A DNA stretch of 64,000 nt from an uncultured bacterium (GTDB taxonomy: Bacteria; Auribacterota; Erginobacteria; Erginobacterales; CAZKCI01). Within the stretch, counting starts at the first letter, position 1, and each line of letters begins with the position of its first letter. The DNA is taken from positions 32,886 to 96,885 of the forward strand of contig CAZOYW010000007.1 in NCBI GenBank assembly GCA_964584165.1, written 5' to 3'. A model generated the notes under the pieces. The model was not told the origin of the DNA. It was given only the letters and a program-made list of their open reading frames with translations, and did no database searches. Made by a program: the position numbers and the translations under genes. Below, one piece after another: positions 24,632 through 63,953 of the stretch.

Positions 24632-24707
24632 TGTGGGAGCCCCGATCAAATCTTCGATTCGATCGGGGCGATGACGAGCCGGATCGGGGCGAGACGCCCC
24701 TCCCACA
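24632..24707. mobile_element. MITE-like element with TGTGGGAG...CTCCCACA terminal inverted repeats and internal CCCGATCG-AATC-GATCGGG palindrome
   Basis: Related copies at 39846-39881, 51956-51986, 63888-63953; partial copy at 31655. Confidence 0.5.
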
Positions 24708-24794
24708 CCCCGCATAACTGAGGCCTTACGTCCGGTTGATTTTTCCGGCTGTTTCCCGCTATTATAGACCTAGCATTAACCCGGAGGATGACCC

Positions 24795-39750: not shown

Positions 39751-39845
39751 ATTTTCTTATCTCTGTATTCCCTCGCTTGTGACAATCCTGGACATATTAT
39801 CGCCCATAGCCCCACTTGTCCACGCCAAACATGCTTTCGCGTGCC

Positions 39846-39881
39846 TGTGGGAGCCCCGATCGAATCGAAGATTCGATCGGG
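39846..39881. mobile_element. TGTGGGAG-family MITE-like element (partial), palindrome CCCCGATCGAATCGAAGATTCGATCGGG
   Basis: Same family as 24632-24707. Confidence 0.45.
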
Positions 39882-40125
39882 ACGATCCAAGCCAGCCAAG
39901 CCCATGCGAGCGCTATCTTGGATGCTATTGTAGCGTCGGGCCTCCTGGCCCGACGTCGTCAGAACCGTCGTAGATGCCTTTCAGTTGCGATATCCAATTT
40001 CGCTCCGAATCTCCGCATCCTGTGTTTTCCATTCGTAGCCTCGGACCTTAATCCCCTCTTCCCGCTCCGCGAATTGTAGGCCGGGTCTGTGACCCGGCGC
40101 GAGGGCGAAGCGGGGGATTTCTTCT

Positions 40126-40488: not shown

Positions 40489-41360
40489 GTTATTTTCCTT
40501 TTTGGGTATTCAGACCCGAAGCCTCATCCCCACATTTCACTCAACATCCTCGCCCGTTTCAACTTATTCATGAGCACCAAGCGGGGTGCCAATAACCCTT
40601 GGTGAAAGTTGACCGGGCCGATCCTCTTGGCAGGTCTATGAGCAAGACACTACATTTAAGACTTCAAGATCTCAGATTGAGATCTTAAACGCTGCCCGTC
40701 GTTCCGCACACCATGCACTGCGGTTCCCGCCCATCCCTATCTCGCGGGCCTGTTCCCCGGCATTAGCCGTATCTCACGAGGTGATGGCTTGCCTGTATTT
40801 CAACGATCACTTCCTGATATATCGCGATGTTCATCGGGAACTGTTCGCAAATTGCGCTGAATTAGGTGAACCCGCCAACTCGGCCGCACGTCTCGATCAG
40901 GCCGAATGAGAATGTTGACTGATTGATACGTCCTCTGTCTTCATCTTTTTTGCTCGCTTATAAAGCCCCGAAACCCCGGAGGGGTGATCGACAATAGCCA
41001 AGGGGTTTACCCCCTGCTCTGAAGGCAAAATCAGCATGGAGCCCCGGAAGGGCGACGGAATCCCGCCGCCGAAGCTAGCCTCGCGAAATCGCCTGCGCTC
41101 CATCCCCTGCCTTCCTGTCCCGTGCCAATCCAAGGAAGGCTCTCATTTACAACTGTCCAGTTTTTGGGGGGCAGGTCATCCCGAGCATAGGAAAAATAAA
41201 TGATGGTGCACTTTTCAACATAATTTCTCTCCCTAATGGTTAAGGGATTTACTCTAACGGCTCCCGCTCAAGCCGCCCCCCTTTTCCCAGCACTCATTGA
41301 TCGGCGGCTTACAGCCGATTTTTAACCCTAATTTCGGCTTTAAGCCGTTATAAACCCCCA

Positions 41361-41396
41361 TTTATGCGTATCCCTTTGCTAATCAACCAGATTCCG
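41361..41396. repeat. 36-bp direct repeat R1 (tttatgcgtatcc...caaccagat.ccg), 3' of the RSD gene
   Basis: 30/36 identical to R2 at 42818-42853. Confidence 0.6.
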
Positions 41397-41435
41397 TGGT
41401 CCGACTACATGTTCGATATCTCTAGATATTACTCC

Positions 41436-42482
41436 TCACGCCTTGTCATTATCCTTTTTATTGTCTTCATTTTTAGTTGTTAGTGGAAAACCCAATAAGC
41501 CCGGAAATGTCCCCAATCCATACTTTGATATGTCAATCCTGAATTCGTTAGGATTTGGTATACCAGCTATATTTGGACTATCTAAAATGTACATATTCGG
41601 ATCAAATATATTGATCTTTTCTATCTGAAACGCATTCAACTTATTTATCAGTTCCTCCTTTTCCTTTTTTTCAATTTCTAGCTTGTCGATTTTCACTTTA
41701 AGATCTTCAATTATGCAAGACAATTTATTTACCTCCATCTTATGAACTTCAGCAGTTTCGTCAATCTTCCCCTTTAAATACTGTATATATGAGCCCATCC
41801 CATCCGCGCTTCCAGCGAGGCCATTAAATATTTTCAGGTACGGCATTAGTATTGGATTATCTTTGTCGTATGGATATCGCATTTTATGATCGATTTCGCT
41901 CCACGCCTCTTCAAATATAGTTCGTACTTGAATTTCAACAATAACAGGTTCCTTTGTCGGTTGGGTTTTAATTATGTAATGTACAGATCTATATCCATAC
42001 GGGTGGTTTTCCACCACACATCCCTTGTCTGTATACCTATTTTTTTCGTCGCCTTCACGAATATATGCCTTCGGCTTTTCGATGGTCTCCCATTCATTAA
42101 TAATATATTCATGAATATCATCCCAATCATTTTTAAATAAATGCATTACCCTTACCCCAGCTAAATCAATTACAATGTTCCGATAATTATCTATAGCAAT
42201 TCTAACCTCGGAGTTTTCAAGAGATTTTCGAATAATTTTCTCAATTAAATGATCCGATTCTTTAATGCGTGTTTTTACTGAATGAGCTTTAGGTATATTT
42301 CTTAGCCTTTCGGCAATAGAATTCGCTGCTTGAAATAGATTCATAAATGTTTTATCATAATCTTCGACTATCGCCATCAAATTGGCCCACTTTAATCCTG
42401 ATTTAATATAGTTATCATCGGGTATTCTATACTTCTTGATAAAATCCTTATAATTCATAGCACGACTCCATTGTTTATGCAT
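41436..42482 (-). CDS. RelA/SpoT-domain (RSD) protein, toxSAS/CapRel-like single-chain architecture
   Basis: HSVKTRIKESDHLIEKIIRK, YRSVHYIIKT, VEIQVRTIFEEAWSEIDHKMRYPY (synthetase-fold motifs). C-terminal ~140 aa with coiled coil. Low GC. Confidence 0.7.
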   Translation of the reverse strand: MHKQWSRAMNYKDFIKKYRIPDDNYIKSGLKWANLMAIVEDYDKTFMNLFQAANSIAERLRNIPKAHSVKTRIKESDHLIEKIIRKSLENSEVRIAIDNYRNIVIDLAGVRVMHLFKNDWDDIHEYIINEWETIEKPKAYIREGDEKNRYTDKGCVVENHPYGYRSVHYIIKTQPTKEPVIVEIQVRTIFEEAWSEIDHKMRYPYDKDNPILMPYLKIFNGLAGSADGMGSYIQYLKGKIDETAEVHKMEVNKLSCIIEDLKVKIDKLEIEKKEKEELINKLNAFQIEKINIFDPNMYILDSPNIAGIPNPNEFRIDISKYGLGTFPGLLGFPLTTKNEDNKKDNDKA

Positions 42483-42599
42483 TATTCAATTCCACCTTGG
42501 ATCCCTGGATTCGATAGCTTATTCCTTACTGGTGAAGATAGCTTTGAGAACAAAACAGCTACAACATCACCTCCAATGCATTCTCTTGCTTCAACCTGT

Positions 42600-42790
42600 C
42601 AATGAGCTCTAGGCGGGGGGCCTGGATATTCCCCTTCGGCGGGAAGTGGAGCCCCGCACCATTTTTACGCCTCAATGCGAAACTCTAAGCGAAGTGCCCT
42701 TGGCCAATCTATCGCCGCAGAAGACCGGGGCACAAGCCGAAGGGTCGACCGAGCGGATCCGCTTAGGCCGGCCTTTGAGCAAGACGCTGC
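42600..42790 (-). pseudogene. degraded 3' fragment of a GIY-YIG-family paralog (related to the C-terminus of the 47014-47817 gene)
   Basis: The minus strand translates to VLLKGRPKRIRSVDPS... and ...NIQAPRLELIDR. Compare KYIVLLKGRPKRVGPVDSSPKVNIQAPRLALLDRLI in the intact gene. Frameshifts and a stop are present. Confidence 0.5.
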
Positions 42791-42817
42791 TGTTGTTTTG
42801 ACTCCTTTTTATGCGTA

Positions 42818-42853
42818 TCCGCCTGTCAAGCAACCAGATGCCGAAGCCTAACC
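42818..42853. repeat. 36-bp direct repeat R2, immediately 3' of the PHP-SMC ATPase gene
   Basis: See R1. Confidence 0.6.
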
Positions 42854-42863
42854 GCGCATTTAT

Positions 42864-45845
42864 CTATCCAGCCTCGCCTAAAATATGTTTCCACTGTAAT
42901 CGGTAACGCCGCTCACGTTCTAAAAATGCACGTTCCCCTCCCTCTAGAATCCCGCACACCGTCGTCCGGATATTCGGGTTTTCAAGCGACCCGCTCTGAT
43001 ATTTAATGTGTGGAAGAGTGCCGTCTATACTCGGAGTGGCAGTTGCAATAATCACCTGATCCGCATCCGTATTAACGACCAAGTTGGCATTGTGAGTTAC
43101 GATAATTACCTGTCGGCGCTTACGTACTTGACGAAAGTGCGGTACCAAATCATCGAAAACTGATTTGGGATCAAGATTCTCCTCCGGTTGATCTATTAGA
43201 AGGGGGCGCCGGTCGTTGCGATCAATTGCGAGGTATAGCAAAAGAAGCACTATTCCACGCGTACCGGGAGATACCTGTTCAACAACAACCCCATCATACT
43301 CAATCCCATAACGAATTTCGATGTGCTCAGTGCTGTAAAGCCACGCTCCGATCTGGCGAAACCACTCTACCTTTTTCCCGGGTTCGATCGATGAAGGCAT
43401 TGCAGCCTGAATATCATCCGAATGTTTCGCCACGAAATCATGCATAGCCGTCGCCACTTCATCGGGGTTTCCGACGCGCCACGGCGATAAAAGAGCATCC
43501 TTTGTAATGCTGGCCAGTGTGCCGTGCCCTCGAAATGGTGTGTTCTTCCGCAGATCGAGCAATTCTTCCCCAGCCTTAACCCAATCATTGAAACTAACAT
43601 GTCGCCTGACAACAAAACGCATTTTGGCGAGCGCCCCTTGCTCTCCTTCGAGCTCTTTGTGCAACGGCGTATAAAGACGTGCTAGAGCCCGCTCTTCTTC
43701 TGCAAATGTATTGAAAATCGAGCGGTAGGCTTGTCTGCGCGTGGCTCGTAGAGCGCGTAGTCGTTCGTCCGCCCCTTCCCCATTGTCGATCGCGAGGTCT
43801 AGCTTTTTTAGGCTAGTCTCATTCGCTGCAATCGCTCTATTGAGGATGTCATATTTCCTTTGCTTAATCTCGTCACCCCCAACCTGCTTTTTCGCGGCGG
43901 CACGCGCAGATTTCAGCGCGTCGAGCGGCCAAACGTTCAACGGCACTTTCGTAAGATCTAACGGATTAGTAGGGTCGACGCATTGAAGCTTAGTAATCTC
44001 ATTCGCGACTTTGCTTTTAGCTTGGGTGATGATCGTCTCCACATCGCCGGAATATTTTAGCCGGAAATTCCCCCACTCGATTTCAGTAAGACCTGACTCA
44101 GCGAACCTCTCGCGCATTTCAGCCAAACGTTGCGCGGCATCTTGATCGCGAATGAATATCACCTCGGCGAGCAAGTCATCCAAAGCTTTTTGCCTCCGCC
44201 TCAAGCTTTCAACGCGGTTTTCTGCGTCCGTACATGCCAGATCAAGTTCGAGCAACCGCTGGGCTCGTTTTCCAGCATCCTTCGGCAGCAGGTTCTCAAG
44301 ATCTTTGCGAGATTTCTTGAGTTGCACGCCCAAACTATTGCGATCAATTCGGAGCTTGGGCAATTGATCCTGCAACCGCATCTCCATGGCAATTTTCGCA
44401 GAAGCTGTCGCCACACTTTCGATTTGCTGCTGGCGGCGGCGTCTGATCGGTTTCAGCAACAGATCTGCAAGCGCCTCGAAAGATTCGGTTTGCATACGGT
44501 CTACTGGTTCGGTTTGGTCGAAAATCACCCTCTCAATCTCTTGTCGTAGTTCGACGGCAAGCCCTGCAGATGAGCAAAGTTGTTCCACGAACTGCTGTGA
44601 GAGATAGCGCACCTGCGGCATTTCCTCCGTCCATTCGTCGGGTGAACGGAAGGGAGCCAACTTCCTCTCACCATCGGCCCAGACCTCTTCAACTTGAGCG
44701 TCGCCGATGAGATCGTCAGGTGAGGTGGCTCGCCGCAAAAATGAGGATTCACCCAAGTTGTTGCCGATTGCCTGAGCACCGGCGGCAATCATGTCAAGCA
44801 GCGCGGTCTTGCCAGAACCCCGCTCGCCAATGATGCTGATAAGTCCATGGTTCAATTCGATTTCTTTATTGAGGACCCAAGACATGCCGATGGGCTTTAT
44901 GCTCTCGAGGGTAACCGAATCGGGGATTTCAGTCGGAGATCGTTCGCTGATCGAGACTCGTTCTTCCGGCTCAATGACGGCCTGGCGGAGACTCTCAAAT
45001 GCGAGATCGCCCTTGATCCAGCAATAGCGCGCCAAGTCTGGAGCAGCGACACGGTCCAATTGGTGAGCGTCACATCCATGGAGGCAAGGCTTGATTGCAC
45101 CATATCTGCGTTCAATCGCCTTGCGATCCATCCCGGCCTTGAACCCTAGCCAAAAATCATGGTCGGCTTTGTTGCCTGAGAAGATTATATGCGAGAAACC
45201 CTCGATTTCTTGCCGGATAGCGGAGAAGGCATCATCCTCTTGGAGGCCAGAAGTCCCATCACATTTCGAACTTGCGACTGCCACGAGGCAGTTGTGTCGA
45301 ACCCAGGAATCTTCACGAAAAAGACCTCGCAGCTGGTCAAGGGTTACTTTGAACTGACCAACACCTTCTCGGAATGCACCTTCATCATCCGTTTGCTTTG
45401 GATTATACTTGCGGCCCAATGCGATGAGTTCCGAGCGCGCGCATGAATATTTTCGCTCCTTATACTCGAACGTGAGCTTTCCGAGAATTCGTTCAATCTG
45501 CTGCTCGTGATCCAGATCATCAGGAGAAAACAAGAGATGAATATTGATGCCTTTACTTTGCGCGGTCTTGAGCTCAAGCCTCATTTCAATATTTGGGAAA
45601 ATAAGGTCCACTTGAGGCAGCCGGCCCTCAGCTTTATGCGCACAGATTTGCTTATAACTCTGGATGCACAAATAATCCGTGATGCCTATGGCTCGGATGG
45701 TAGGGGATGCATTTTCGATCTTTTCCAGATAACCCTGCCAGGCACCAGCGAACTGATCACCCAGCACGGTTCCCGGTGCATGAATATGGGGGTCCCAGCG
45801 GTGCCATTCTGAACCGCGCAGGCTCCATTTTGGTGTTGCTTTCAT
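42864..45845 (-). CDS. PHP (polymerase/histidinol-phosphatase) domain fused to SMC/RecF/ABC-type coiled-coil ATPase (993 aa)
   Basis: N-terminal WDPHIHAPGT...AIGITDY (PHP motifs). Walker A IIGERGSGKTALL. Roughly 450 aa of coiled coil. C-terminal LLIDQPEENLD (Walker B / D-loop) and VTHNANL (H-loop). GGAGGA RBS; AT-rich upstream region. Confidence 0.8.
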   Translation of the reverse strand: MKATPKWSLRGSEWHRWDPHIHAPGTVLGDQFAGAWQGYLEKIENASPTIRAIGITDYLCIQSYKQICAHKAEGRLPQVDLIFPNIEMRLELKTAQSKGINIHLLFSPDDLDHEQQIERILGKLTFEYKERKYSCARSELIALGRKYNPKQTDDEGAFREGVGQFKVTLDQLRGLFREDSWVRHNCLVAVASSKCDGTSGLQEDDAFSAIRQEIEGFSHIIFSGNKADHDFWLGFKAGMDRKAIERRYGAIKPCLHGCDAHQLDRVAAPDLARYCWIKGDLAFESLRQAVIEPEERVSISERSPTEIPDSVTLESIKPIGMSWVLNKEIELNHGLISIIGERGSGKTALLDMIAAGAQAIGNNLGESSFLRRATSPDDLIGDAQVEEVWADGERKLAPFRSPDEWTEEMPQVRYLSQQFVEQLCSSAGLAVELRQEIERVIFDQTEPVDRMQTESFEALADLLLKPIRRRRQQQIESVATASAKIAMEMRLQDQLPKLRIDRNSLGVQLKKSRKDLENLLPKDAGKRAQRLLELDLACTDAENRVESLRRRQKALDDLLAEVIFIRDQDAAQRLAEMRERFAESGLTEIEWGNFRLKYSGDVETIITQAKSKVANEITKLQCVDPTNPLDLTKVPLNVWPLDALKSARAAAKKQVGGDEIKQRKYDILNRAIAANETSLKKLDLAIDNGEGADERLRALRATRRQAYRSIFNTFAEEERALARLYTPLHKELEGEQGALAKMRFVVRRHVSFNDWVKAGEELLDLRKNTPFRGHGTLASITKDALLSPWRVGNPDEVATAMHDFVAKHSDDIQAAMPSSIEPGKKVEWFRQIGAWLYSTEHIEIRYGIEYDGVVVEQVSPGTRGIVLLLLYLAIDRNDRRPLLIDQPEENLDPKSVFDDLVPHFRQVRKRRQVIIVTHNANLVVNTDADQVIIATATPSIDGTLPHIKYQSGSLENPNIRTTVCGILEGGERAFLERERRYRLQWKHILGEAG

Positions 45846-45970
45846 CTGATAACTATAGTCCTCCAGTTGCTTGTTCGCGATATATTCAGATCCCGAATAT
45901 TGCCCATTGCCATATAATTTCCCCGATATTTACGCTAGGTATAGCTATAATTTGAGGTTATCATCCAATA

Positions 45971-46417
45971 TTACAATTTCTGAATCCATTTCGCGAAATC
46001 GGATTGTGTCTTCTTCCCTACTGCAACGGATCCCCCGCGGGTAAAATGTTTGCTTCCCGCTATCCAAATGTATCCGCCAAAATCAGATGGAAGAAATAAA
46101 TCCCCATATTGAATCATGGCTACCTTTTCTTTCCCGAAATGGCCGAAGAAATAGCCAAACTCAAACATAACATTCAGATTTGGGATGTTCTTTTTCTGTT
46201 TCTTGATTATCGTTCGGGATTCCGGAGAGAAAACAAGCAAGGCTCCTTGCACTTTCGCGCGGATAGAGTCTAGTTCTTCCAGTAAGTTTCTCCCGGGAGT
46301 AAACGCATCCCACCACGGTAAGAAGGAGACAACATTTGAGGTTAAAGCTTTGACAATCGCTTTGGCTTGGGACCTGGCTGCCGACGACGAACCGATGAAT
46401 AGCTTTATTTCTGGCAT
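45971..46417 (-). CDS. TIR-like domain protein (COG4271/PF10137-type predicted nucleotide-binding TIR-like)
   Basis: 148 aa KLFIGSSS...PWWD.F..G...L..L......GALLVFSPE...NVMFEFGYFFGHFGKEKV...LPSD.GG pattern. Confidence 0.55.
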   Translation of the reverse strand: MPEIKLFIGSSSAARSQAKAIVKALTSNVVSFLPWWDAFTPGRNLLEELDSIRAKVQGALLVFSPESRTIIKKQKKNIPNLNVMFEFGYFFGHFGKEKVAMIQYGDLFLPSDFGGYIWIAGSKHFTRGGSVAVGKKTQSDFAKWIQKL

Positions 46418-46530
46418 ATTTGTTCCTCCCTTCCATTGTTTAATTTCAGATATTATTTGAATACGTAGGCCAACGTCCTAACCTACTTTAACCTATCCAT
46501 AAGCGCCGAACGAATGGTATGAATATTCAT

Positions 46531-46896
46531 CTATTTCAGAACAATGGATAGAATACCCACAAGTAGCCCTATAATGCTTGCAATCGCTCCCCAAGTTTGT
46601 AGATTTACATCAATCTCGGGATATTTATCTCTAATATATTTCGCCAATATAATACCTCCAACGCAGGAACCCCCTACAAGAACAAGCAGGAATGCTGTCT
46701 TGATCAATATTGGGCCTATATTATAGCTTGGCAAAGGTGTTCCTAGCGAAGATTCCCAAATGTAGACTATTGGCCGAACAAGTGCTCCATGCCGCGTTGC
46801 AGGGAAAAACACTGCTAATATTAGCAATAATAGCAATACTGCAATTGTGCACAAACATCCAAACTGATCTGTTTTATTAAAATTGCTTCTAAACAT
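46531..46896 (-). CDS. small membrane protein (3-4 TM)
   Basis: 121 aa. Hydrophobic segments CLCTIAVLLLLLILAVFF, AFLLVLVGGSCVGGIIL, AIASIIGLLVGILSIVL. Confidence 0.45.
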   Translation of the reverse strand: MFRSNFNKTDQFGCLCTIAVLLLLLILAVFFPATRHGALVRPIVYIWESSLGTPLPSYNIGPILIKTAFLLVLVGGSCVGGIILAKYIRDKYPEIDVNLQTWGAIASIIGLLVGILSIVLK

Positions 46897-47013
46897 AAAT
46901 ATGCCCTTTTAGTTTCAGCGAGATATGCTCGCTAATATCGACACCGCCTCTGCCAACGTCCTCGACCGCTTCAACCTGTTCATAAGCGTCAGGCAGGGGA
47001 CCTGACTACCTGA

Positions 47014-47817
47014 CTACAGTGCATTTGCCAATGTCTTCGCCCGGATCAGCCGATCCAGCAAAGCCAGGCGCGGGGCCTGGATATTGACCTTCGGCGAGGA
47101 ATCTACCGGACCAACCCTCTTGGGGCGGCCTTTGAGCAACACGATATATTTCCCTGACTTGCGCCAGGGCTTGATCTTCCGGATGCGGCCATAATGGGTC
47201 ACTTGCTTGATGGGCGAGGTAAGGTAAATCGCAAGGTATTTCAGCCTCGGGATGACCCGCTTGGAAAGGCGGATGGCATACCAACGGTTTTTGCCCAGGA
47301 ACTCCTTCTCGAACCCATCCTTGTGAGCCGGGCAGACAAGCGTGTCATACTCCCCTCTTCGCCGGCGGACATCACAGCTTGAAGATACCTTCTTCGGAAC
47401 GCCTCCGGTGATATCAGCCAACTCGCGCCGCTGGGACTGAACGATCCGGCTCTTGAACACCCGGTAAAGATCGCGCGAGGCGGTGATTTTCCCTGAAACC
47501 CGATTCCCTTTGGGCGAGGCTATCCTCAGAACCAGCGACTCAAGCTCCCGCAAATGCTCGTCGCCCTGAGTCAGATAGATGCTGAACCGGTCCCATTCCT
47601 CGGCATGGCGATCCTTGAGGTGGCCATGCAGCCTTGATCGAAGGTTCCGGGCCAGGCCGACGTAGTAGAGGCTATCCCCGGCATAAAGAGCATATACCCC
47701 GCTCTTCCCCCGGGCGAATTCGGTAATGATATCCGGATATCTTTTTATCGCCGTCCGGGCGATGTTCTCCAAATGCTCGACGACGAGCGGGGCTTTCCCA
47801 ATCCGTTTTCTTCTCAC
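47014..47817 (-). CDS. GIY-YIG nuclease-domain protein with ~170-aa C-terminal domain
   Basis: GVYALYAGDSLYYVGLARNLRSRLHGH (GIY-YIG). Cys/His pair CDVRRRRGEYDTLVCPAH. Degraded copies of its 3' end elsewhere in the island. Confidence 0.6.
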   Translation of the reverse strand: MRRKRIGKAPLVVEHLENIARTAIKRYPDIITEFARGKSGVYALYAGDSLYYVGLARNLRSRLHGHLKDRHAEEWDRFSIYLTQGDEHLRELESLVLRIASPKGNRVSGKITASRDLYRVFKSRIVQSQRRELADITGGVPKKVSSSCDVRRRRGEYDTLVCPAHKDGFEKEFLGKNRWYAIRLSKRVIPRLKYLAIYLTSPIKQVTHYGRIRKIKPWRKSGKYIVLLKGRPKRVGPVDSSPKVNIQAPRLALLDRLIRAKTLANAL

Positions 47818-48078
47818 TTGGCATCTCCTTTCACAATCCCAATCGCTTCCTCCGTCAGTTCAAATAGCTCATAATGACCGAACTTGTACAGGCGGGAAGG
47901 TTGCGCTCGAAGACTTCGACCAGGCGTTGGATCTTGTCCGAGGCGGGCATGGTCTATACCGGAGGGTTGTTTATAATCATACAAATCCCCGTTTTCCAAT
48001 TCCATAAGATATTCCATTACATAATATATTCCAGTTCCCCCCTCCCTCCTATTCATAGCCCCCCCCGCCTGCTCCCCC

Positions 48079-48463
48079 TGGGACACTTCCTGTCCGATCG
48101 GACAAGGTTTGTCCACTTTTGATCGGGAATGGAGGATTTCCGGCCCCCCCAACCCAGCATTGATCTGGGACAACTCGTGTCCGATCGGACAGGGTTTGTC
48201 CACTTTTGAGCAGGAATGGAGGGTTTCTGGCCCCCCCAACCCAGCATTGATCTGGGACAACTCGTGTCCGATCGGACAGGGTTTGTCCACTTTTGAGCAG
48301 GAATGGAGGGTTTCTGGCCCCCCCAACCCAGTATCGAGCTGGGACAACTCGTGTCCGATCGGACAAGGTTTGTCCGTTTTTGATCGGGGAACGAGGGCTT
48401 TTCCTGCTCCAAACCCACCCATTGAGTTGGGACAACCCATGTCCGATCGGACATGGGTTGTCC
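48079..48463. repeat. array of five ~87-bp tandem repeats, each containing the perfect palindrome TGTCCGATCGGACA (last unit a perfect 36-bp palindrome)
   Basis: gggacaactcgtgtccgatcggacagggtttgtcca...cccccccaacccagcattgatct repeated. Lies in the divergent region between the GIY-YIG and PaaX-like genes. Confidence 0.85.
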
Positions 48464-48567
48464 CAATGTCGTCTCCTGATGAGTTCATTGCCCTTGAAAT
48501 CTCTGCAAGAAATATCCGTTCAAAAGAGTCCTTATAGTAGGGCGGGCAATGTCCGCATGAGCGCCGA

Positions 48568-49356
48568 TTGCCCCTCCATCGCGGAGACGCGCGGATGCCA
48601 ACCGTTGCCGAAGATATCCTGATGCTCCTCGCCGAGGGAGCGTTCCGGCTCCTGACTTTCCGCTCCCTGTTCACGCTCGACTGGGGGTTCAGCTCTCCGG
48701 CTTATCGCAAAACGATCACCCGGCTCGAAAAAGACGGCGCGGTCCGGCGGGTGCAACATAGACGCGACGTGTATCTTCATCTCACCGATCGAGGCAGAAA
48801 AATTCTGGAACAACGCCGTCCTCCCCCGAGAAAATCCCCGCCGACCTGGGATCGTCTCTGGCGGCTGGTGATCTTCGATATCCCGGAGAAAAGAAACGAG
48901 GACCGCCTTCTGCTCCGTCGGTATTTGACGGCATCGGGGTTCGCAAAAGTGCAAAAGAGCGTTTGGATCGCTCCCTATGACCGCGAAGAACAAGTGCAGG
49001 AGTTCACCCGAAAAATCGATATCCAACGCTATGTATTGCAGCTGACGTTTAAAAAATTCCGCAACCTCGAGGAGCGGGATTTAGCCGCGTCGTTCTGGGA
49101 TATCCAAGGTCTGCAAGTTCGCTACCAGGAACTGATCCAACGCTACGCGAAAAGAATGGCCGTGCTCCCGGCAGGGACAAGGGGGGCGGCGATTGGGCGC
49201 AGACAGTTCTTGAACGATCTGCTCTGGGATTACCAAACTATCCTGGCCTTAGACCCTCAACTGCCGACCGAGCTGCTTCCGGCGAACTGGAGCGGCGCGG
49301 CCGCGAAGCAGTTCGTGAATCGCTGCCGCACCCTTTTCTCCAGCGGCCCTGTGTAG
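48568..49356 (+). CDS. PaaX-family winged-helix transcriptional regulator
   Basis: WDRLWRLVIFDIPEKRNEDRLLLRRYLTASGFAKVQKSVWIAP matches the PaaX C-domain consensus. N-terminal wHTH. The start may be ATG 48595. Confidence 0.6.
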   Translation: MPLHRGDARMPTVAEDILMLLAEGAFRLLTFRSLFTLDWGFSSPAYRKTITRLEKDGAVRRVQHRRDVYLHLTDRGRKILEQRRPPPRKSPPTWDRLWRLVIFDIPEKRNEDRLLLRRYLTASGFAKVQKSVWIAPYDREEQVQEFTRKIDIQRYVLQLTFKKFRNLEERDLAASFWDIQGLQVRYQELIQRYAKRMAVLPAGTRGAAIGRRQFLNDLLWDYQTILALDPQLPTELLPANWSGAAAKQFVNRCRTLFSSGPV

Positions 49357-49385: not shown

Positions 49386-49507
49386 CGGACAACTTCTGTC
49401 CGATCGGACAGGAGTTGTCCCGATGAAACCAGGTTTTCGGGAGGCAGTTTCCCCCTCTTTCATGCTTGGATTTGGGACAAATCCATCCGATCGGACAGGT
49501 TTGTCCC
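49386..49507. repeat. two further 34-36-bp palindromes of the TGTCCGATCGGACA family, 3' of the PaaX-like gene
   Basis: cggacaacttctgtccgatcggacaggagttgtccc and gggacaaatccatccgatcggacaggtttgtccc. Confidence 0.8.
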
Positions 49508-51955: not shown

Positions 51956-51986
51956 GTCCCGATCGAATCGAAGATTCGATCGGGGG
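51956..51986. mobile_element. partial copy of the CCCGATCGAATCGAAGATTCGATCGGG palindrome family
   Basis: Same core as 39854-39881. Confidence 0.4.
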
Positions 51987-63887: not shown

Positions 63888-63953
63888 TGTGGGAGCGACA
63901 TTCCTGTCGCGATCCATGTCGGCGCGGATCGGGGCAGGAATGCCCCTCCCACA
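63888..63953. mobile_element. TGTGGGAG...CTCCCACA MITE-like element
   Basis: tgtgggagcgacattcctgtcgcgatccatgtcggcgcggatcggggcaggaatgcccctcccaca. The 3' half is shared with 31655-31690. Confidence 0.5.

Follow-up and report, generated by a model that had tools for sequence, protein, structure and literature searches.

The stretch of DNA studied here, 64,000 nucleotides from a contig (CAZOYW010000007.1) of an uncultured bacterium of the Auribacterota and hereafter called the window, carries on its minus strand, at positions 41436 to 42482, a gene for a RelA/SpoT-type nucleotide synthetase. We found that this synthetase is a further member of FpRel, a named, poorly characterized, and horizontally mobile subfamily of small alarmone synthetases (SASs). 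A preliminary description, made from the letters of the DNA alone, had proposed a CapRel-like fused toxin-antitoxin protein; that assignment is not supported. Both the enzyme class, a RelA/SpoT synthetase, and the placement in FpRel are highly probable as judged from sequence. The synthetase fold is intact, with no catalytic motif missing, and the family to which the protein belongs is large, phylogenetically patchy, AT-rich relative to its surroundings, and without a conserved partner gene. As the explanation of the whole, we modestly favor a stand-alone FpRel synthetase, borne on a mobile cassette, that would act on a nucleotide acceptor and bring about conditional growth arrest.

The synthetase belongs to a large family assigned to FpRel

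A word-indexed search returned 1254 relatives, the closest of which, apart from the protein itself, had 52% identity. An exhaustive profile search gave 975 clusters (at 50% identity) with E values of 1e-30 or less. Among species-representative genomes, copies were found in more than 15 phyla, all at 36 to 52% identity to the query. We then compared the family with proteins that already carry the name fpRel. A protein of 349 amino acids (aa), whose accession we infer to be that of the Bacillus anthracis plasmid pXO1, matched the family hidden Markov model (HMM) at 1.5e-98 over positions 2 to 288, and a 389-aa protein of the 5.1-kb Paracoccus plasmid pMARC1 matched it over its full length at 8e-100. 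Proteins of the Fusobacteriaceae fell inside the family BLAST cluster. In the supplements of Atkinson et al. 2011 (PMC3153485), fpRel is recorded in B. anthracis only for assemblies that include the plasmids, and it is the sole SAS of Fusobacterium nucleatum. Because the pXO1 and Fusobacterium fpRel proteins belong to the family, we assigned the whole family, by this indirect route, to FpRel. Like the published members of that subfamily, the present protein has a single synthetase (SYNTH) domain; publications on FpRel are silent on a coiled coil followed by a variable tail, on the habit of forming AT-rich islets, and on a defense-island setting.

The best matches of known structure, by sequence and by fold, were the RelP and RelQ proteins (SAS2 and SAS1) of Firmicutes (PDB 6fgj, 6ewz, 5dec, and 5ded). 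When the PDB was searched with the single sequence, only proteins of the RelP/RelQ type were returned (best E value, 5.7e-9), and the family profile behaved likewise (best, 3.7e-15); CapRel, FaRel2, and long RelA/SpoT homologues (RSHs) gave no match in either search at E values up to 10. Foldseek placed RelP/RelQ structures at ranks 1 to 39 (best, 8e-11; template modeling [TM] score up to 0.80 on the target), with the CapRel structure 7ztb at rank 40 (6.8e-6; TM score, 0.33) and FaRel2 at 7e-5.

The synthetase shares all catalytic motifs with RelP/RelQ and has a core of comparable size. However, identity to them is just about 22%, and with the NCBIfam model GTPPhKinYjbM, the RelQ equivalog, the protein scored 42 bits against a cutoff of 320. 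It also adds to the RelP/RelQ plan a helical region of about 55 aa at the N terminus, an insertion of about 15 aa with an invariant RxGD and H, and a helical extension of about 80 aa followed by a disordered tail. A further difference is that the FpRel-family synthetase is mobile and not vertically inherited. We rejected a housekeeping RelQ or RelP orthologue as the identity of the protein on the strength of this low score, together with the lack of a stable genomic context, the AT-richness of the gene, and its being missing from a genome that is 99% identical.

An intact synthetase core is followed by long helices and a variable tail

Public gene calls use both of the available start codons, giving forms of 348 and 340 aa. 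The N termini of the family line up with the second start (ATG 42458), whereas a better Shine-Dalgarno sequence (AAGGTGG, 9 nucleotides [nt] upstream) precedes the first. The choice of start is without effect on the other results. Residue numbers below are those of the 340-aa form unless the 348-aa open reading frame (ORF) is named.

The synthetase motifs that had been read at the N terminus are present. The only Pfam match of the protein was RelA_SpoT (PF04607; E value, 1.8e-20), at 73.7 bits where the cutoff is 27. The protein thus has a SYNTH domain only, without hydrolase, TGS, or ACT domains. Across 63 aligned members the motifs RxK, DxxG(V/I)R, GYRSxH, and ExQxRT are invariant, and the synthetase has all of them (R64, K66, D98, G101, G155, Y156, R157, S158, H160, E175, Q177, R179, and T180), in alignment with their counterparts in Staphylococcus aureus RelP. 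A second set of invariant residues, R134, G136, D137, and H152, is specific to the family and lies inside the insertion of about 15 residues relative to RelP.

This insertion bears on an alternative that we consider quite unlikely, namely, that the protein is a toxin of the Tas1/Apk or FaRel kind, a (pp)pApp-producing or otherwise noncanonical nucleotide pyrophosphokinase that would kill by draining ATP. The RelA/SpoT fold serves several acceptors, and the invariant residues of the insertion, which RelP does not have, could reshape the acceptor site. However, Kurata et al. report strongly distinctive motifs for (pp)pApp synthesis, whereas the family retains motifs like those of RelP/RelQ, and neither a small alarmone hydrolase (SAH) gene nor an immunity gene accompanies the synthetase.

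We modeled the synthetase with AlphaFold2 (AF2) from an alignment of 63 family members (mean predicted local distance difference test score [pLDDT], 86; predicted TM score [pTM], 0.76). In the model, short helices and a long helix at residues 3 to 53 lead into an alpha/beta synthetase core at residues 60 to 194. A very long helix (204 to 259), a second helix (264 to 283), and the tail (293 to 340) follow, so that the C-terminal extension with a coiled coil described earlier is recovered. Past residue 180 the model has no beta structure and no folded C-terminal domain. The long helix opens with the family-invariant residues N212, G216, D219, and M221 (NGLAGSADGMG here; family consensus, NRLAGSADEMG). 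What had been called an extension begins with some 30 residues that rank with the best-conserved positions of the family and are thus part of the enzyme core. PDB searches with the C-terminal region returned generic coiled-coil matches only.

Alignment occupancy and conservation drop sharply past about aa 285 of the 348-aa ORF, and a BLAST search with the tail alone found no significant relatives. Other members end differently. In 58 of 227 family members a low-complexity linker rich in Ser, Thr, and Gly leads to a terminal set of one to four zinc ribbons (CxxC...CxxC); the present tail has no zinc ribbon. Examples of ribbon-bearing proteins are P0014, P0018, P0025, P0027, P0038, P0075, and P0105, and still other tails carry degenerate repeats of short motifs, for example (I/L)P(D/N)(F/L)S. 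A constant enzyme body with diverse tails resembles the diversification of a sensor.

A CapRel-type architecture is not supported

In the reading put forward in the preliminary description, the protein would be a fusion of the CapRel kind: the N-terminal domain would pyrophosphorylate the CCA end of tRNA, the C terminus would be both an antitoxin in cis and a phage sensor, and a phage protein binding to this C-terminal region would free the toxin. We now regard this as improbable. Like CapRelSJ46 (PDB 7ztb), the synthetase has the RelA/SpoT catalytic fold in a single chain of similar length with a C-terminal part that varies, and mobile DNA carries the gene. In favor of the reading, the single-chain synthetase has no partner gene, the C terminus is hypervariable across the family and in 58 of 227 members ends in the zinc ribbons described above, and the gene lies among defense genes. 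In addition, the toxic SASs (toxSASs) that use tRNA have no diagnostic sequence signature.

However, the resemblance to CapRelSJ46, for which we took as reference the 373-aa product of Salmonella phage SJ46 gene J46_0058, does not extend beyond the catalytic core. BLASTP aligned query residues 61 to 187 with CapRel residues 76 to 192 (127 residues, 23% identity; pairwise E value, 3e-4) and found nothing better than an E value of 1.8 outside this core, leaving the C-terminal halves unaligned. A profile-sequence comparison with hhalign recovered the same core, over 107 columns, with a probability of 3%. No pseudo-zinc-finger domain or antitoxin domain of the ATcapRel type was found in the AF2 model past residue 204, where there are helices and disorder, and the tail has neither a folded domain nor cysteines. 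The structure searches reported above, with no toxSAS among the PDB matches and CapRel far down the Foldseek ranking, point the same way. The catalytic domain is near-neutral, with an isoelectric point (pI, a crude proxy for the surface) of 6.7 against a family median of 6.2, whereas the toxin domain of CapRelSJ46 is strongly basic (9.2).

We therefore rejected CapRel membership, as the protein lacks two defining features: grouping with CapRel and the pseudo-zinc-finger antitoxin domain. The preliminary description had itself named two results that would speak against it, clustering with housekeeping SASs and a C-terminal domain unlike that of CapRel. The protein does group with RelP/RelQ, and its C terminus is unlike that of CapRel; yet it is no RelQ or RelP orthologue. 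The looser idea behind that description, of a single-chain growth-arrest effector that is conditionally activated, may still hold.

The gene is AT-rich and has no conserved partner

From 80 related loci, each taken with as much as 10 kb of flanking DNA per side, we called 1274 ORFs and clustered their proteins all against all. The synthetase cluster was present in 78 of the 80 loci. The next largest cluster, of histidine kinases, was present in 14, at scattered offsets. Among these 1274 ORFs, and in Pfam and PADLOC scans of 255 neighbors (138 immediate and 117 of the second shell), we found no conserved partner or antitoxin gene. Since no neighbor holds a fixed position, there is no antitoxin partner gene, and the earlier statement that none is evident held at the locus and in 78 homologous loci. 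The bicistronic toxSASs (FaRel, FaRel2, PhRel, PhRel2, and CapRel; Jimmy et al. 2020) share the RelA/SpoT domain and the association with mobile DNA, but they are defined by just such a conserved adjacent antitoxin gene. Nor did the family loci have a conserved adjacent gene for a YejK-like nucleoid-associated protein, the partner in systems of the PANGU type. Defense genes adjacent to the homologues were few: HamA/HamB (Hachiman) at two loci, DRT reverse transcriptases at two, and PDC-S48 at three.

In 70 of 74 loci the GC (guanine plus cytosine) content of the gene was lower than that of its flanks. The median difference was -5.3 points, compared with +1.7 points for 555 control ORFs of these loci (Mann-Whitney P value, 6e-28). 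In the window, the AT-richness that had been noted for the gene was confirmed at a GC content of 0.345 to 0.35, compared with 0.68 to 0.70 in the flanking genome. By present knowledge, retron-type reverse transcriptases and SMC (structural maintenance of chromosomes)-like ATPases are defense-type cargoes. The pMARC1 copy was described by Maj et al. 2013 (PMC3832669) as the cargo of an "AT-rich plasmid islet" (35.7% GC against 55.1%), and on sister Paracoccus plasmids the same islet position is held by a retron-type reverse transcriptase or an SMC-like ATPase.

Full-length members recovered in plasmid and phage searches were those of pXO1, pMARC1, and a Ralstonia phage; a copy in a Vibrio prophage was frameshifted. 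This last copy, in Vibrio phage 10N.286.54.E11_PE002B (L087 10600-11500), is unannotated and lies where accessory genes ("morons") are typically found, at the end of a 12-kb tectivirus-like prophage. The members from Fusobacteriaceae are of another kind. They are 257 aa long and tail-less, their GC content is like that of their flanks, and a common neighbor was found in two loci; they look resident.

The synthetase gene is strain-variable cargo

In a sister assembly, the flanks of the locus are 99.2 to 99.8% identical to those in the window, and a single 261-aa gene replaces window positions 40757 to 47011. Because this block is replaced in a near-identical genome, the synthetase is strain-variable cargo. 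The GIY-YIG gene at the edge of the block is only 92% identical between the two assemblies.

The preliminary description had the gene bracketed by 36-bp direct repeats. The bracketing is real and includes a 36-nt stretch, but the repeat as a whole is imperfect, 43 nt long, with 33 of 43 positions shared by the two copies. Local alignment of the two flanks gave a score of 23, compared with 10.4 +/- 1.3 in 1000 shuffles, none of which reached 23. The two copies are the only ones within the window, and a scan of JGI metagenome contigs with the repeat core found no match. The upstream copy overlaps the remnant of a GIY-YIG gene; thus, the synthetase cassette is bounded by scars of earlier recombination. 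Such pseudogene remnants nearby, like the frameshifted Vibrio prophage copy, would suit a decaying passenger gene without current function. We consider this highly improbable for a gene whose ORF is intact and keeps all catalytic and family-invariant residues, and whose exact protein (P0001/P0121) occurs in several independent public assemblies.

A conditional growth-arrest function is proposed

In the explanation that we favor, the stand-alone FpRel synthetase would pyrophosphorylate a free nucleotide at its 3'-OH, with ATP as the donor. The acceptor would most likely be GTP or GDP, giving (p)ppGpp, and less likely tRNA. The helical region and the oligomeric state would normally keep activity low, with the very long C-terminal helix, or coiled coil, probably driving oligomerization. 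A cue read through the variable, lineage-specific tail would raise activity, and the buildup of alarmone together with the drain on nucleoside triphosphates (NTPs) would slow or stop growth. Such arrest may benefit the cell or the mobile element under phage attack or other stress.

We hold (p)ppGpp to be the product with slightly more confidence than doubt, because the nearest relatives are (p)ppGpp synthetases, the surface is neutral, and a Pseudomonas syringae DC3000 gene named fpRel, possibly of the same clade, was reported as that strain's third source of (p)ppGpp (PMC7146990). A paper on exported alarmone synthetases contained no sequence rule for the choice of acceptor. The closest precedent for the mechanism is the GRel synthetase Pag1B (PANGU type I), which aborts phage infection via pppGpp (preprint 10.64898/2026.04.06.716658). 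In that preprint, the absence of a positive pocket argued against Pag1B as a tRNA enzyme, and this was then shown: in abortive infection Pag1B makes pppGpp and does not modify tRNA. As in the present protein, a synthetase domain is followed by a helical linker, and the protein is not basic. However, Pag1B requires an adjacent nucleoid-associated protein gene, whereas the FpRel family has no conserved neighbor, and it has a folded acidic C-terminal domain, of which the present synthetase has none. Oligomerization and restraint by the helix, with the tail as sensor, are suggested by the shape of the protein and by the precedent of the inert Pag1B tetramer.

Whether the arrest would serve a dedicated role in defense or conflict we judge to be a close call, leaning slightly to the negative. 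A stronger version, which we hold only tentatively and think doubtful, is that the coiled-coil FpRel proteins are an unrecognized, widespread single-gene system against phages and other mobile genetic elements. In that version, the helical oligomer would hold the synthetase quiet and the hypervariable tail would switch it on, whether that tail is a zinc ribbon, as in roughly one member in four, or a disordered peptide, as in the present protein. A flood of nucleotides of the (p)ppGpp type would then abort the infection, and the system would spread in the form of AT-rich islets of one gene each, carried by chromosomes, small plasmids, and prophages.

Several points weigh against the explanation that we favor or limit how far it reaches. 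Jimmy et al. 2020 retain FpRel and describe it as paraphyletic, and PADLOC gave a weak match (1e-8) to another RelA/SpoT candidate family, PDC-S33. Part of the low GC content of the gene may be explained by the composition of its protein, which is rich in Lys, Glu, Asn, and Ile. The neighbors of the homologues are very mixed and mostly housekeeping genes, and we therefore do not claim a family-wide enrichment in defense islands. According to Kurata et al., the tRNA-using toxSASs are without a clear sequence signature, which makes the acceptor unreadable from sequence. Oligomerization and autoinhibition by the helix are suggested by the shape of the model, and enzyme activity and phenotype are predictions for the synthetase and its close relatives alike.

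PDC-S33 was considered as an identity for the protein and rejected. It is a separate RelA/SpoT family, with a best E value of 8e-9 among 63 members, and the literature searched made no mention of it.

Some of the same observations would suit a synthetase of the ordinary accessory kind, which would supplement the stringent response with (p)ppGpp under some stress as a horizontally spread counterpart of RelQ, RelP, or RelV. Such an enzyme would have no role in conflict, and its location in an island would be incidental. RelP/RelQ are the closest structures and sequences, most homologues adjoin housekeeping genes, the short, tail-less Fusobacteriaceae members look resident, and fpRel is regarded as a normal source of (p)ppGpp in P. 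syringae. We consider this reading less likely, although it is the alternative with the most in its favor. It sits poorly with a score far below the RelQ equivalog cutoff, with the absence of conserved synteny and the strong AT-rich foreign signature, and with presence and absence between near-identical strains. Nor would it lead one to expect a plasmid islet position that alternates with a retron reverse transcriptase and an SMC ATPase, copies in prophages, or hypervariable tails.

The synthetase cassette lies in a defense island

The positions of the features discussed are collected in Table 1.

Table 1. Features of the synthetase gene and its surroundings in the window
Feature	Positions	Strand	Basis or remarks
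FpRel-subfamily small alarmone synthetase gene	41436..42482	-	ORF list; 348 aa (340 aa from ATG at 42458)
RelA/SpoT synthetase (SYNTH) domain	41862..42272	-	Pfam RelA_SpoT PF04607, aa 71-207 of the 348-aa ORF
Long helix and second helix	41610..41849	-	Residues 204-283; AF2 pLDDT 87-95; rest coiled-coil-like
Disordered hypervariable C-terminal tail	41439..41582	-	Residues ~293-340; pLDDT <50; without cysteines
Direct repeat, upstream copy	42801..42843	+	43 nt, imperfect; 319 nt before the start; overlaps GIY-YIG 3' remnant
Direct repeat, downstream copy	41354..41396	+	40 nt past the stop codon
Strain-variable block	40757..47011	.	6.3 kb; synthetase, Ppl/TrlF-like ATPase, TIR protein, 121-aa membrane protein
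TrlF-family/Ppl-like AAA ATPase	42864..45845	-	993 aa; NCBIfam NF045780 4.3e-187, above cutoff; PADLOC Ppl 3e-27
CAP12/Pycsar-type TIR-domain protein	45971..46417	-	148 aa; Pfam PF10137 3.3e-19; PADLOC TIR effector 9.6e-20
GIY-YIG nuclease-family protein	47014..47817	-	267 aa; edge of the variable block
GIY-YIG C-terminus-like pseudogene remnant	42574..42824	-	Like aa 213-263 of the 267-aa protein, frame break; tblastn 3.7e-7

The synthetase cassette is part of a low-GC region of about 10 kb (about 39.6 to 49.6 kb) between genes for hydrogenase-type membrane subunits and hypE. In the order of transcription, on the minus strand, the genes are those for the GIY-YIG protein, a 121-aa membrane protein, the TIR protein, the ATPase, the synthetase, and a 120-aa membrane protein. 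The neighboring defense genes are the TIR and ATPase genes, and the whole low-GC region is a defense island. Promoter and terminator consensus scans around the synthetase gene gave nothing above shuffles, and an Rfam search found no RNA adjoining it.

The TIR protein, which stands alone as a domain, lies directly upstream of the 993-aa ATPase (42864-46417, minus strand), at whose N terminus there is a PHP-like HxH motif. Independent assemblies (L081 and L082) contain the same pair, and the two genes may form a two-gene system. TrlF takes its name from the temperature-restriction locus of Photorhabdus.

Four decayed 3' ends like that of the GIY-YIG gene, each comprising the last 20 to 55 codons, separate the cargo genes downstream of the intact gene, at 47004-46942, 46530-46468, 42824-42574, and 40646-40539. 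The spacer in front of the synthetase gene consists mostly of the third of these, and repeats were also seen at the nucleotide level. The remnants are just 45 to 64% identical as protein and are thus derived from different homologues. In the sister locus (L084 10001-12100), another single cargo gene is followed by that locus's own last remnant (80% identical in nucleotides, with flanks at 99%). No integrase was found at the cassette island (40539-47817). The arrangement suggests that cargo has been exchanged serially, with the end of the GIY-YIG gene as the site of recombination.

Metagenomes of the Acidobacteriota type often contain homologues of the GIY-YIG protein, and some relatives have RAMA/DUF4357 domains. 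On three contigs (L091 6957-10804, L092, and L093), a homologue overlaps by 4 bp the end of a gene for a 1015-aa MmeI-like restriction-modification enzyme. On another contig (L089 10001-19745), a homologue is followed by a gene for a 1644-aa protein, and a RES-Xre toxin-antitoxin pair lies close by. The GIY-YIG nuclease-family gene seems to travel with defense cargo.

Several repeat and RNA elements were also observed in the window. Window positions 48078 to 48468 hold about 4 to 5 tandem units of 87 to 88 bp, each with a 34-nt near-palindrome, GGACAAC...GTCCGATCGGAC...GTTGTCC. A further copy lies 1 kb away, at 49387-49425, just past a PaaX-like gene (48568-49356) on its 3' side. The array, whose copy number differs in the sister genome, is contained in a doubtful 286-aa ORF with a 4-bp overlap onto the start of the GIY-YIG gene. 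It could be an operator array or a REP (repetitive extragenic palindromic)-like element. The Acido-Lenti-1 RNA motif gave a sub-threshold match at 40972-41017 on the minus strand (31.6 bits, below the gathering score of 37; E value, 4.6e-4), in a gene-poor stretch that separates the synthetase cassette from the last GIY-YIG remnant. By themselves, this weak match and the relatives of the GIY-YIG protein would suggest an acidobacterial source for the window. Dispersed repeats of 27 to 80 nt occur at the island border and in distant parts of the window (39843-39897, 24632-24708, 51958-51985, and 63909-63953). One of them overlaps a weak Rfam match to CRISPR-DR29 (39930-39965; E value, 0.08), and these repeats are probably a genome-wide REP-like element and not a CRISPR array.

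Significance for the FpRel family

If the more conservative reading is true, the main value of the finding is a correction: the synthetase should not be annotated as CapRel. To our knowledge, RelA/SpoT proteins have only two routes to phage defense, the modification of tRNA by CapRel and the partner-activated synthesis of pppGpp by GRel/Pag1B. If FpRel is antiphage, it would add a partner-free form of alarmone-based defense. It would also help to explain why bacteria carry extra SAS genes, a question raised by Jimmy et al. With about a thousand clusters, a foreign-DNA signature, hypervariable tails, and islet positions held in common with retrons and SMC-like ATPases, FpRel is worth testing for such a role.

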